Assembly (NCBI RefSeq): GCF_018977255.1
Contig: NW_024704752.1
Coordinates: 17,732,001 to 17,796,000 of the forward strand
Length of the DNA: 64,000 nucleotides
Direction: 5' to 3'
DNA from: Callorhinchus milii
Taxonomy: Eukaryota
A program made the translations under genes and the position numbers. Every line of letters begins with the position of its first letter. Position 1 is the first letter of the stretch. Positions 7,001 through 49,000 of this stretch are shown piece after piece. Below the pieces are notes generated by a model, which was given only the letters and a program-made list of their open reading frames with translations, had not been told where the DNA came from and did no database searches.

Positions 7001-10000
7001 ATTCTTGAAAAATAGAGGGATTAGGGGATATGGGGAGAGGGCAGGTAATCAGAGTTAGGTGAGAAGATCAGCCATGATCTTATTGAATGGCGGAGCACAG
7101 GCACGAAGGGCCGAGTGGCCGACTCCTGCTCCTAATTCTTATGTTCTTATGTAATATGCATTATACAAGGCTTCTTCGAAAAAAAACTAGTAGCCTTATT
7201 GTACGATATCCAAACGTTCAATTCAATAGATTTAATTGAATCAATCAAAATTCTAACTTAATCAGGGAATGTCATTAGAAATTGCCTTATGTTAGTCTCC
7301 AGCTTATGAGTAATCTTCCATAAAACTGTACATCTTTATCTTTGTATCCTTCCCTCAGCCTGTATAATAAAATTACCATAACGTTTGTCCTTCACTGACA
7401 AGCCACATGCGGAGGCAGGTAGATGCATCTCTCTTATTGTTTTTTAGTTGCTGCACCTCTCTTTTTGTTTTCTGTTTGTCTTTTCTGGTTGCCATGAAAT
7501 TTAGAGGTCCTTTTCTTTTAGCGATCTGACAAGTTTTCTCACATTTTATGTGAAGATAAATTTGTTTTCATTGCTGTTTGCATAACGTGGTATAAGCTAT
7601 TTATTTTCATGATGTACTAGCTTTCTTTTGAAAAAGGTCATTGCTTTCCTACTTTAGATGTCTTATTGCAGTGGTAACACGATAACACATCGTGTTAATC
7701 AATTCATGAGGACTTTCACCAGTTCTGGGGATCAATTGATAAACACATTACTTATCAAATTGTTTTAAGTATACCCTTATCCTCCATTCCTTCCGCATTT
7801 GAACACAAATTTTTGTTGCACAGTTTTACTTTTTTTTCCACCAAGGGTGAAGAGGCTCATTTTAAGACAACTTTCTATTTTTAAATCATATTACCCTGTT
7901 TGTTTGTTTCTTTGTCACACAGTTTGCTCACACTAGTAGAAGCTGCAGCAGAAGGCAAAATCACAAATTGCTTATGCTTTTGAAATTGTTAGTCCAACAC
8001 TGAGCGGCAAAATTGATTGATGGAAATGTTCCATATATTGTCAATGGTCTCCATACTTCACTTTGCCACTGACTGCCAGCTGAGGTTCAAAAGAGAGAGG
8101 TAATTTGGAACCTCAGTCCGAGGAAACTAATTCCTTTATGAGAAAAATGTTGAAAATAAAAAAACCCGGCTGATAGTTCAAGCTCAAAGGACGAAATGAC
8201 ATTGTAATGAACTCTAGGAGTCTCACAACCTCTTTCCCTTGACGTAGATTATATATAAACTGTTAACGATGCTTTAAAATTGTAAAATGCCGCCACAACA
8301 ACAGTAATAACAAAATTATATTCATATAGCGTCTTTCGCATCGGAAAGACATCCCAAGCCGCTGGACAGTTAAGGGTTTGCACTTGAGTTGGGGGTTAGA
8401 GCCAAGAGGGGTGGAGGTTAGGGGGTGGTGGGGGTGGGAGGGTGGCCGAAAGCACAATCAAAGAGGAAAGTCTTGAGAAGGCCTTGAAGGAAGCAAGGGA
8501 GGGGGTGAGGCAGAAGGAATCCGGGATGGAGTTCCAGAGTTCTTTCTTTATTTTTTCTTGTTGAAAATGGTTAAACTGCAGAAATACATTTATTGTAATA
8601 GAGCACAGAACTCTACGCCATAAATTTAGAATAAAAATTGAATAGAACTGTCTTCAGAACTACTCCTCTGTGAGACTCTCAATAGTTTGAATTCGATATA
8701 ATGAATATAAATATCATGTCATTGAAAAAAAAAAGTTTTATTTAATAAATTATTTTAAGTTAAATAAATTCTAAATAAAATTATGTTTTTGACCGCTTTT
8801 TCCAAAAATAGAAATTAGCAGAAGTTTGAGATCCTGTTTAATACTGAAACAATTGTCTGTGAGCGCTGGCTCCAAATACCATTGTTTATAATTCAGGTAA
8901 TTCTCAGTAGTAACTGTGAGTCAAACAATCTACTGTTCTTTCTGATATCTCTAGTTACATCTACTATTATTTCAGATACTTTGAGACAGCAGAACAAACT
9001 GCAGAAATCCTGACTATAACCAAACTATATCAGTGTCATTGTGTTTCAGTATCTCTACTTTAATAAATGCCCCTGTTTTCATAGCAAGGCCTCTCACAGC
9101 CAAATGTTTTATGCTCAATGAGTTCCTTAATCTGGTTGTTTTCTTTTGCAAATGGAGCCTCGTACACTCGTTGCGTCTAATTACATTTTGATTTGTTGAG
9201 CCTCTTATTGAAGTGATAGAATTGACATACCCTTGTTCCTATTGAATTGTGGTTCCTTGAATAGGGATAAAATGCTCCAAGGAGCGACCATCGAAGACAC
9301 AGTTCATAGGTGGTGTTTTGAAAAAAGCCGCAGATATCTGCTCCAGTCTACAGTTTAATGGAACATGTATTAGAACATCAAATTTCAGCTCTGCATAATG
9401 AAAACCAGCATTCTGTACTAAATGTTGCCAAAAAGGACTTACATAGGATATTCCAAACAGACTGAACTCCATCATTCCTATAACACAGAAACAGTAGATT
9501 TTGCTTTAGAAAGGAGACTCGTTGAGGAGTCACAGGCATCTTAGAGCTGAGGTTCAATGAAATCAGTGCCTAATTTCAAACTGAGCAGTGGAACTCCAGC
9601 ACTAAGCGCAGAATATTATGGCCATCATACACATTTAATGTTGTGGAAAGAAAGCGGCAGAATAAAAGCATCCACCCCCCAGACACATAGCTTCATATTT
9701 GTGAAGGAATACTTCGGTCCAAGACGATATATGCTGCGCTGAAGCAACAGTCAGTTTCATAACACAAATCCCACCACGTGTGGTCTCAGAGGAAATGCAG
9801 TTGGAGACGTGAACCAATCAACGTAATTTAATCAGAAGAAACGGTTTTGTCTGTTGTTGTATCTGAACTAGTGACTAATACCCAGAATGGGTGATCAGTG
9901 AGAGACTGAATGATAGACTTATGGACTGAAGGCATGTATAACTGTACAGATGCATATTATTCTGTTCTCAGAGCATTGAGGACATACTAGCAGAGGCTTT

Positions 10001-46000: not shown

Positions 46001-49000
46001 TTTGTGGGACACTGCTGTGCGCGATTGGCTGCTGCATTTTGTCCACAAATATACAGTGAATTCACTTTACAGCATATTCTGTGAAGAGCTTTGAGACGTC
46101 TCGGAGACATGAAAAACACTATATCAAATGCAAGGATTAATTACTGGGCACCGCATTTCATCTGATATATTAGATACTTTAGATTAGATAATTCAACCTG
46201 TTAGATCTGTGTTGCTTGGTGTGTTAATGCATTTGTTATGATACAAATGAAGGACAACATGCACCCGAGCACTAGCTCTGTGGGCCGTGGTTACAGGGCT
46301 TTCAACAACCTGTTAAAGAATCTGCCTGGTTTCTCTCAGTTTAGGGTTCCACAAATGACAATTATGGAGAAGGTTGGAATCATATCCAACCAGTTTGGGG
46401 AAAAAAAAGATTGTGTGAATGCTGAAAGGGGGGGTGCAATGTTTGAAGGAAACAGCAACTTGCATTTATATAGCGTCCTTCGCGTTGGGCGGTGTCTCAG
46501 AGTGCTGCATCGCATAGAAACTGAATTATATACTTGGGATGGAACTGACAACATTTTTAATACGTTCTGCAATTCCAACCCAAGAATTTATTCAGTTGAT
46601 TTCTTATTCAGAATGTGCTTAACCTTTATTGAAAGAATACCTTCAAAGCACAACAGAATATAAGAAGCAAGATAATTGAAAGTTTGGGATCTAACTATAA
46701 AACTGGAATTAAAATGTTATTTACCGTCTCATATTCATACCAAACTGCATCAGGAAAGTAAGCTTGTATTTTTGTTGTCTTCTGAAAATAAGAATAAGTA
46801 TGTAAGAATCATTACATGAATACCTGAAGCTAAATACAACATTTTCACAATACCATGACTGGTTGGTACAGTATTCCACCAATATGTACCACTGATTCAA
46901 GTCCTTAATATCCCCTGTGGTACAGTATATTCCCAATCTTAGCTGAGTAAACAAAGTAAAGCATTGAGTGGACCTATCTGCTAAAAAAATCATCCGATAG
47001 CTTGTTGGAAAACCTGCTTTTTCAGCCAAATTTGATGTTGACTGAAAAATAAAGCGCGGAGACAGATACGGAAGTGGTTGGGGAGATATTAAACAATGAG
47101 GAAAAGTACATAGGTCGAATCATGTTCAGTTCAACAGTCCATTGAATTATTAATAGGACAGTATATAACAAAGTGTTTAATTAAAACTTTTGACACTATG
47201 CATTCTTGTAGAAAAGCTAATTAAAAAGCTGGAATATGGATTAGCAGGTTAAGCGGTAATGATAGGGTGAAATTGGTTGTATGGACTTTAAGGAATACTG
47301 CAAATGTTACTCCTCTTTGTTTCCTGATCGGTGTACACATTTAAAATAACAGCAGAAGGTCAACCAGACGCAGTCAATTAACATACAGGATCCAGCACTG
47401 GGCTGATGAGAAGAGCAGGTCCCCAGAGAAACTGTCGGTCCACAGTCCATGTTTGATTGTCTGAAGGAAACCTTGTAAAAGATAAAGCATTTTATGTGTT
47501 TACAATGTGGAGTTACACTAATGTCTTTAAGGTAAGAAAGGAAAGTGCTGCACAGTCAAAGCCTTTTGTGGCTGGTGAACCCAGCTCTATCTGTATCCGA
47601 GCACAGGTCAGATTTAACCAGAAATCCCTTTAAATTGTTCGGCAAGACAGCTCAACCTTCTCAGCCCACTCTGCGAAGCCCCCACATCCTATCAAATTGT
47701 GAAACTGATCCCGTCTTCACATTTTTGCAGTCTCAGAATACCAGTCAGAAAACGCAGGGTGCTATTATTTACTAACAGAAGCTTTAGAATCCTGTCCTCC
47801 CGAATTAAATGGTCCCTGGATGGAATGACTGCAAACAGATTATGTTGGTGAGATCTGCCGTAGACTATCAGCAAGGCAAGCTGGAACAGCAGCTCAAATC
47901 GCTGTGGATCTTATTTATAGGAGCTTCATCTTCTTCCTTTTTGACCATTACATTGCTTCACAGTTCAATAGCAGATAATGTTTACACAAAAGAGCTAACT
48001 CCAGGGATTCTTATTATCAGAATGGATTAATCGTGTGTAGCCATGACCTTAGTGATTGTAAGCCACTTTTTTTGTTTTAAACTTACTCATGAAGCAATGA
48101 ACGAACCACTGTGCTTCCATTGACGTGAGCCTCGTGGAAGAGAGTGTAGAGGTAAGGCAGCAATGTATATCGGATATTCAGGTAATGTCTTGATGTGTTC
48201 ACTAGAAGGGACGTTTCACCAAAAAAAGCAGGATCTTGAGGCTAAAGATAAGATTTGTATCCATCATATTATTCGTGATCCAAATATTCTGCCAAAGCAA
48301 TGCAATATTCACTACTATCTCAGACAACTTACCTTGTATCCCTCAGCATTGTGGTTCCTGGAAAATGGATAAAATGCTCCAACTTGCATCCAGCGACTGC
48401 AAAGATCTTCATCTGCATTACCGAAGAAGCCACAAATATCAGCTCCAATCTACAGAAACAATACAGTGTTAGCCCCTTATAGGACAGCATGCTGAACATC
48501 TATAAGCAGCTGATTCCACAACAATACAATTTTGTTTGCCTAATAAATACACATGTCGATACACTTTATATCCTGTGAGACGTCTTCCTGGCGTGAAAGA
48601 AGTCGTATCAAATACAAGCATTGTTTTTATAGCATAAATAGGTTACTTTGGATCTTTGATTTGATTAATGCCTTACCATCATTGAAAACATTTTCAACAG
48701 GTTTTTTTCAAACATATTTGCTTCCCTAAAACAAAGATACACAGGAGTCCGTTGGGGAAAAACGTACAGAGGGTGAGACAACTGAAAGTGAACTTACGTA
48801 GGGAAAGCCAAAAAGGTTAAACTCCAGCATTCCAGGAATTGCCCATTTCATGTCATTCCAATTTGCTCCGTTATCTCCCAGCCAGTGTCCAGTATATTTT
48901 CCTGATCCGGCGAAAGTTGATCGGGAAAGAATAGCACTTCGTTTGTTGGGGAAGATCTTTTTAATCACTCTGCAGAGTCAAAGTACATTTTTGTGTCACA

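Follow-up and report, generated by a model that had tools for sequence, protein, structure and literature searches.

Vertebrate sucrase-isomaltase has a two-module layout, and its gene sits beside SLITRK3 and BCHE. In the long form of mammalian MGAM (2,722-2,761 aa in macaque, marmoset and mouse) the second module is tandemly repeated inside the protein, and the middle unit carries a first-module-like tail. Our comparison of modules covered 18 of 19 proteins, the axolotl being left out. Modules 2 and 3 of mammalian MGAM were 94-100% identical over most of their length, and in the macaque, marmoset and mouse models module 2 ends in a tail 78-79% identical to that of module 1 and 50-60% identical to that of module 3, which agrees with the extra copy ending in N-module-like exons that a preliminary description of the present locus had mentioned. 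Splice forms of the MGAM C-terminal subunit have been reported (PMC7658089, excerpt). Three-module database models named “sucrase-isomaltase” exist for frogs, lizards, Gopherus, Ciona, a sea star and molluscs, and this is the architecture proposed in that description. Our literature search turned up no publication on three-module enzymes of fish or amphibians and none on Callorhinchus milii sucrase, and the excerpts of PMC12805851, PMC7369638, PMC8246590 and bioRxiv 10.1101/2021.05.12.443838 that were consulted contained nothing on module number. Extra exons are also gained by false duplication in assemblies; Ko et al. (2022, PMC9516828, excerpt) count a gap separating paired copies within one scaffold among its signs.

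Here we analyze a window of 64,000 nucleotides from C. milii (the whole stretch of DNA presented), in which the preliminary description saw either a recent MGAM-like triplication or two unmerged haplotypes.

Results

The window contains most of one gene:
930..63246, minus strand: sucrase-isomaltase-type gene; in the one-copy reading 47 coding exons, 5,481 nt, 1,826 aa plus stop
contig position 17730918-17730992, just outside the window: last coding exon
47387..48241, minus strand: exons 19 and 18 (aa 657-736)
6458..6822, minus strand: exons 42 and 41 (aa 1562-1639), not in the duplicate

The one-copy reading equals A0A4W3K2T9 / XP_007886824.1 without mismatch over aa 1-736 and 1562-1826, and its differences from these records and from V9K7L2 consist of alleles (aa 1232, 1236 and 1410) and assembly frameshifts. 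Two trefoil domains (PF00088) and two GH31 barrels (PF01055) give it the vertebrate two-module layout. Catalytic motifs, following the GH31 signature peptides given in PMC6451114 (excerpt), lie at 491/588 and 1390/1493, and V9K7L2 has two nucleophile motifs. Exons 41 and 42 encode the end of the second catalytic barrel and the start of its C-terminal domain (PF21365). A SLITRK-type and a cholinesterase open reading frame, assigned at the family level with the paralogue left unassigned, lie 43 and 71 kb past the window end. Judged by its sequence, the gene is a sucrase-isomaltase orthologue encoding a two-module enzyme, a predicted brush-border alpha-glucosidase with putative sucrase and isomaltase activity. 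All nine C. milii cluster members span 1,386-1,826 aa, and each of the 13 other named proteins from sharks and rays consists of two modules; three-module forms elsewhere make up 47 of the 120 listed proteins.

Two near-identical blocks (∼99% identity) lie within the gene, on either side of a gap:
7339..27338, no strand: copy A, exactly 20,000 bases; only the left contig's last base lies between it and the gap
27109 down to 9231, minus strand: exons 20-40 of copy A
27340..27369, no strand: scaffold gap, 30 N
27370..27440, no strand: unmatched segment, 71 bases, start of the right contig
27441..47009, no strand: copy B, 19,569 bases, extending into intron 19
46781 down to 29310, minus strand: exons 20-40 of copy B
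10873..11324, no strand: interspersed-repeat insertion with a TTG-repeat end, 452 bases, in copy A only

The presence of exons 20-40 in duplicate was thus seen correctly, as was phase 0 at both the end of exon 40 and the start of exon 20. Each copy holds 21 coding exons, corresponding to aa 737-1561 of A0A4W3K2T9 and V9K7L2. The copies align in two blocks, of 3,544 bases at 98.9% and 16,063 bases at 99.3% identity, separated by the 452-base insertion. Both inner boundaries fall at contig ends, copy A stopping 1 base short of its contig end and copy B starting 71 bases past the gap, so that an assembly gap separates the two on one scaffold. They form the sole repeat of at least 1 kb and at least 98% identity within the 864 kb examined; the other two gaps there (both 25 N) show no comparable overlap, and a systematic habit of the assembly is unsupported. 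At the outer boundaries we found no homology that could drive unequal exchange (best local score 21). Exons 41/42 and 18/19 do lie close to these boundaries, as had been pointed out, at 0.5-0.9 kb and 0.4-1.2 kb.

It had been suggested that the gap hides exons 41/42 or 18/19. This finds no support, since exons 18/19 have no second copy anywhere in the assembly and the 71 bases after the gap continue neither flank of the repeat. That segment has a single match in the assembly, by a search method that skips very common words, and matches nothing else in the 864 kb examined and nothing among 72,556 plasmids or 50,697 phages. Its best local match within the window scores 35, no better than chance (shuffles 31-39).

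The proposed 2475 coding nt are obtained after error correction, but as assembled copy A has 2,473 nt and copy B 2,474 nt. An internal period of 23 exons fits length and phase only for exons 17-24 versus 40-47; in the more 5' part of the gene, exon lengths agree when offset by +21 or +22. When an overlap of 19,569 bases was slid along the 44.2-kb single-copy gene in 2,466 placements, both ends fell in introns in 1,907, of which 869 were in frame; 693 of the 2,466 were in frame and held 21-25 exons. The near-module size and the frame of the repeat are therefore within chance expectation.

As assembled, the reading frame is broken in each copy by shifts that look like consensus errors:
22763..22913, minus strand: exon 25 of copy A, two 1-base deletions, frameshift, stop at aa 905
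32893..32976, minus strand: exon 36 of copy B, 1-base deletion, frameshift, stop at aa 1471

The shift in exon 36 is an assembly error, because the base is present in contigs of all three DNA runs described below. For exon 25 a long-read consensus error is most likely; a contig of another animal (X3) over 41957-43036 of copy B has 1 gap letter where copy A misses 7 single bases. Single-base deletions lie toward the end of the respective contig in 16 of 21 cases in copy A and 5 of 9 in copy B (Fisher p = 0.12), and this bias was given no weight. Overall the copies differ by 68 substitutions (0.35%; 39 transitions, 29 transversions) and 36 indels, 30 of them single-base.

Sequence from other animals was available as contigs from three DNA runs of one study (X1-X3) and one RNA run (X5). 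Among the runs that a run search found to contain the sequence, none is on record as RNA. The left boundary is crossed by unbroken contigs in two of the three DNA runs and in the RNA run, and the right boundary in all three DNA runs. At the left, single X1 and X2 contigs match from 27441 with 210 letters preceding, exactly as many as separate 7339 from the end of a high-copy repeat; we take their identity from this number, and the contigs begin there because the repeat ends there:
6917..7152, no strand: high-copy repeat in the left flank, 2,539 candidates

The X5 contig behaves likewise, with 44 letters preceding, and for X3 no piece at this boundary is among those listed. In X1, X2 and X5, the contigs covering 27441 have other letters in place of the 71-base segment. 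At the right, one X1 contig spans 46452-47369 plus 1,749 further letters, and in X2 and X3 the positions 46508 and 47075 each time fall on one and the same contig. Were there a true tandem junction, the assembly graph should fork at both boundaries; its absence is an indirect reading, from tables in which a further 3,234 joints and 7,627 loose ends go unlisted. Contig depth, which is not copy number, was 11.6 in X1 for a flank-dominated contig against a mean of 11.6 inside the copy (8.6-13.4, 7 contigs), and in X2 6.5 for the flank against a mean of 7.6 inside. In X3 the contig at the right boundary has a depth of 4.55 and the interior a mean of 8.5, but this contig says little about the flank because about two-thirds of its length falls within the copy. 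Binned depth, dominated by repeats, was left out. Word shares across runs were 0.81-0.86, values that do not distinguish loss of a junction from ordinary variants, and were likewise left out.

A spliced X5 contig of 3,093 nt fits exons 18-45 by way of one copy. It starts 113 nt ahead of exon 20, and the 505 nt remaining past exon 40 equal the summed length of exons 41-45, from which we take their identity. Neither the nine C. milii records nor this contig revealed a three-module transcript or protein, although a minor form would escape contigs.

The same animals speak to the nature of the differences between the copies. Copy B lacks the 452-base insertion, as do the contigs of X1 and X3 that run across its site. 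Divergence from copy B was 0.39% in X1, 0.37% in X2 and 0.51% in X3, and copy A differed in the same intervals by 0.36, 0.32 and 0.37%. Among the sites listed, beyond which the table had 110 more rows, 34 in copy B remained after five repeat-dominated rows and one flank row were dropped; 12 showed the copy A allele, 7 of them varying between runs, and 22 showed variants found in neither copy. Proteins A0A4W3K2T9 and V9K7L2 combine residues of A and B at 1232, 1236 and 1410. The differences between the copies thus behave as alleles, with the caveat that contigs keep one arm of a bubble and that paralogous differences can mimic alleles.

Discussion

Our results favor a false two-haplotype (heterotype) duplication, to which we assign a probability of roughly 0.93; the real gene would then have one copy of exons 20-40 and be an ordinary two-module gene. 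Gap geometry, allele-level divergence, single-pass contigs in other animals and the two-module records form the observed basis of this reading, and this evidence favors the unmerged haplotypes that the preliminary description had offered as its alternative. We infer that the source animal is single-copy as well, and by what software route the overlap arose. The real locus would encode the 1,826-aa two-module enzyme. Two contigs overlapping at their ends by ∼20 kb, built for the most part from the two haplotypes of the animal and still containing uncorrected single-base errors, would have escaped merging and been placed one after the other with a nominal gap between them.

Other explanations must be weighed against the same evidence. 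That one haplotype was assembled twice, sequencing errors being the only differences, would fit the 30 single-base indels, several of which are shown errors. It is highly improbable, since the substitutions of both classes and the repeat insertion point to allelic differences and since alleles of copy A recur in other animals at 12 of the 34 listed sites. The recent MGAM-like triplication initially proposed, as a species-wide three-module enzyme collapsed by short reads, has the least left to recommend it. Three-module members are common in the family, mammalian MGAM has the same layout, and the duplicate is in frame after error correction; but the contigs that run unbroken across both boundaries, the matching depth inside and outside the copy in X1 and the one-pass RNA contig largely refute it, the C. 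milii and other chondrichthyan proteins have two modules, and MGAM also duplicates the stretch equivalent to exons 41/42, which is not doubled here.

A real tandem duplication that is private to the sequenced animal or rare is harder to address, since other animals cannot speak to a variant limited to that individual, yet we consider it very unlikely. It would have arisen by recent unequal exchange between homologues, an origin from which allele-like copies are expected; the segment of 71 bases could be filler at the junction, and MGAM provides a genuine case of near-identical internal modules within the family. Against it stand the coincidence of both inner boundaries with contig ends, the exact 20,000 bases of copy A, the lack of homology at the outer boundaries and the single copy of exons 18/19 in the assembly. 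Splicing of exon 40 directly to exon 20 would give a protein of 2,651 aa whose middle module lacks aa 1562-1639, a stretch covering the end of the barrel and the beginning of PF21365, and this too counts against such a duplication; with sequence like exons 18/19 hidden in the gap, the protein would have about 2,731 aa. If such a duplication were true, none of the other named cartilaginous-fish species with listed proteins, 14 in all with this one, would share its three-module form; it would be a three-module enzyme at birth, very recent and still polymorphic. A gain of a module would then have been caught while segregating, repeating what is seen in MGAM and in the frog and lizard enzymes, in an architecture common in other animals.

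The duplication is most likely not a real feature of the gene. As an artefact it is relevant only to users of the assembly, in which the gene model may be broken up, shifted out of frame or enlarged by 21 exons; C. milii often serves as an outgroup in work on the evolution of vertebrate genes.

Set beside the known three-module enzymes, the locus differs in several respects. MGAM repeats the full period, including the stretch equivalent to exons 41/42 (95-100% identical between modules 2 and 3), whereas here only aa 737-1561 are doubled (825 of ∼903 aa), exons 41/42 are absent from the repeat, a gap occupies the junction and the records and RNA contig considered show no three-module transcript. 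In the frog and lizard models compared, six in all, the catalytic cores of modules 2 and 3 are 63-85% identical; modules diverged to this extent are old and cannot be unmerged haplotypes. The closer likeness is to the false duplications with exon gain described by Ko et al. (2022, PMC9516828, excerpt). There the depth, linked-read and k-mer tests used reads of the assembled animal, whereas here other animals serve as proxy; the near-identical adjacent copies, the gap between them, the extra exons and the allele-level differences are the same.

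Results

Self-comparison of the window gave one long direct repeat inside a sucrase-isomaltase-type gene, its copies aligning as two blocks, one 98.9% and the other 99.3% identical.

7339-27338, copy A
10873-11324, 452-base repeat insertion, copy A only
27340-27369, run of 30 N between the copies
27370-27440, 71 unmatched bases between the copies
27441-47009, copy B
L023 2868-5558 (outside the window), minus strand, neighbouring SLITRK-type open reading frame, 897 codons
L026 1162-2685 (outside the window), minus strand, neighbouring cholinesterase open reading frame, 508 codons

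The left contig extends one base past copy A, which is exactly 20,000 bases long, and in the right contig 71 bases precede copy B; the round length, spotted post hoc, hints at a software window and no more. Those 71 bases have one match in the assembly (G000) and, compared with both flanks, continue neither. No other repeat in the 864 kb examined reaches both 1 kb and 98% identity, and this pair has a gap between its copies. The two other gaps there, each of 25 N (G000:C11:17564891 and 17849531), have flanks without overlap, and the same 864 kb contains 22 isolated short N marks.

The gene lies on the minus strand, as mapped with the 1,826-aa C. milii records P0032 (A0A4W3K2T9 / XP_007886824.1) and P0033 (V9K7L2). 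Residues 737-1561, the exons 20-40 that the preliminary description had reported as doubled, map to both copies, and the doubling is borne out; its figure of 2,475 coding nt is not, the assembled copies holding 2,473 (A) and 2,474 (B), both frameshifted. Exons 18/19 are single copy in the assembly. With the repeat counted once, the gene comprises 47 coding exons (5,481 nt); its product has two trefoil domains and two GH31 barrels, and outside the repeat it shows no mismatch to P0032. A repeat exon matches a 1,813-aa C. milii alpha-glucosidase at 100%, in a cluster of 9 records of 1,386-1,826 aa. A SLITRK-type gene and a cholinesterase gene come next, the neighbourhood typical of sucrase-isomaltase. 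A search with one exon found no second two-module gene in the assembly; more distant GH31 exon matches (L007, G000:C16:5943375, 51%; L008, C20:5720747, 45%) are probably lysosomal alpha-glucosidase-like genes.

Between the copies there are 68 SNPs (0.35%; 39 transitions, 29 transversions) and 36 indels, of which 30 are single-base and 6 longer, the 452-base insertion included. Three of the five coding SNPs alter a residue (1232, 1236, 1410), where P0032 carries the states B, B, A and P0033 A, A, B. The 452-base insertion, 94% like a copy 87 kb away and not in the contigs of the DNA runs X1 and X3, is probably a young insertion polymorphism. At window position 34987 (exon 31) the second position of codon 1228 varies in X3 and the RNA run; P0033 has D and both copies E, and the codon is a variable site adjoining the differences at 1232 and 1236.

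Three DNA runs (X1-X3, one study) and one RNA run (X5, another study) supplied contigs that were placed on 27370-47369. Since every DNA run has variants in neither copy, X1-X3 are, judged by these variants, animals other than the assembled one. Their listed contigs differ from copy B by 0.39, 0.37 and 0.51%, and copy A there by 0.36, 0.32 and 0.37%. The 34 listed non-repeat sites in copy B comprise 22 new variants and 12 A alleles; 7 of the latter differ between runs, a point weakened by bubble removal in contigs. Contig depth, which is not copy number, was 11.6 in X1's flank-dominated contig and averaged 11.6 inside (7 contigs); it was 6.5 versus 7.6 inside in X2, and 4.55 versus 8.5 inside in X3, where the 4.55 contig sits mostly within the copy. 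The base absent from exon 36 of copy B is found in 3/3 DNA runs.

Discussion

We consider it very probable (about 0.93) that copies A and B are an unmerged overlap of two haplotypes inside an ordinary two-module sucrase-isomaltase gene. That the species as a whole carries a three-module enzyme is the least credible reading. A tandem junction would fork the word graph at the boundaries. At the right one, a single X1 contig of 2,667 letters spans 46452-47369 and further, and in X2 and X3 one contig matches at 46508 and 47075 alike. At the left one, X1 and X2 contigs match from 27441, preceded by 210 other letters, the distance from 7339 to 7129, inside the end of another, high-copy repeat (2,539 genome candidates); lengths among the listed contigs suggest that this extension is the left flank. 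X5 likewise matches from 27441, with 44 letters before, and no X3 piece at this boundary is among the matches listed. A spliced X5 contig (3,093 nt, depth 1,451) starts 113 nt before exon 20 and has 505 nt left after exon 40, exactly the length of exons 41-45 (149+85+57+125+89), which by lengths among listed contigs it would contain; a second pass through exons 20-24 would add 495 nt identical to the first, and contigs of this kind do not cross such a stretch twice.

A false duplication of one haplotype, with sequencing errors as the only differences, is very unlikely. A real duplication private to the sequenced animal, though improbable, ranks ahead of it, and is kept in consideration because real, near-identical module repeats exist in the alpha-glucosidase family. 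In macaque, marmoset and mouse, the N-module-like tail described for MGAM was confirmed, the tail of the middle module being 78-79% like that of the first. Outside this tail, MGAM modules 2 and 3 share 94-100% identity, also over the stretch that the C. milii repeat lacks, but the latter is short of the full period and has a gap as its junction. The proposed period, exon n matching n+23, holds for exons 17-24 only. When a 19,569-base overlap was placed along the gene in 2,466 ways, both ends were intronic in 1,907; 869 of these were in frame, and 693 were in frame with 21-25 exons. The in-frame, module-sized fit is not special: the distance from an exon to the 23rd next is 17-23 kb throughout the gene, and phase 0 introns predominate.

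Three-module family members are not rare: three nucleophile motifs occur in 47/120 listed proteins, in a list whose ranking favours such forms, from mammals, frogs, lizards, a tortoise, tunicates, a sea star and molluscs, and two modules in 13/13 other named shark and ray proteins listed. An annelid also has three. Proteins of ~2,700 aa with three modules, named sucrase-isomaltase, occur in many frogs, axolotl, lizards and Gopherus (among P0037-P0071 and others), backed by transcript contigs of 8.2-8.5 kb; listed crocodilians, Emydura, coelacanth, lamprey, ray-finned fish and sharks have ~1,820 aa. From these sequences, module number seems to have changed repeatedly in sucrase-isomaltase-type proteins, on which our literature search found no paper. 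The modules of P0091 (Acanthaster, 2,797 aa) are 78-89% identical mutually, unlike other invertebrate models, and may reflect recent triplication or homogenisation.

According to Ko et al. (PMC9516828), false duplications come mostly from unmerged haplotypes; their marks are an intervening gap, halved depth, read pairs that span the site, and words present in single copy. For the last three of these marks, other animals' contigs serve as proxies only. Such a gap does lie between copies A and B, and the two differ at the level of alleles.
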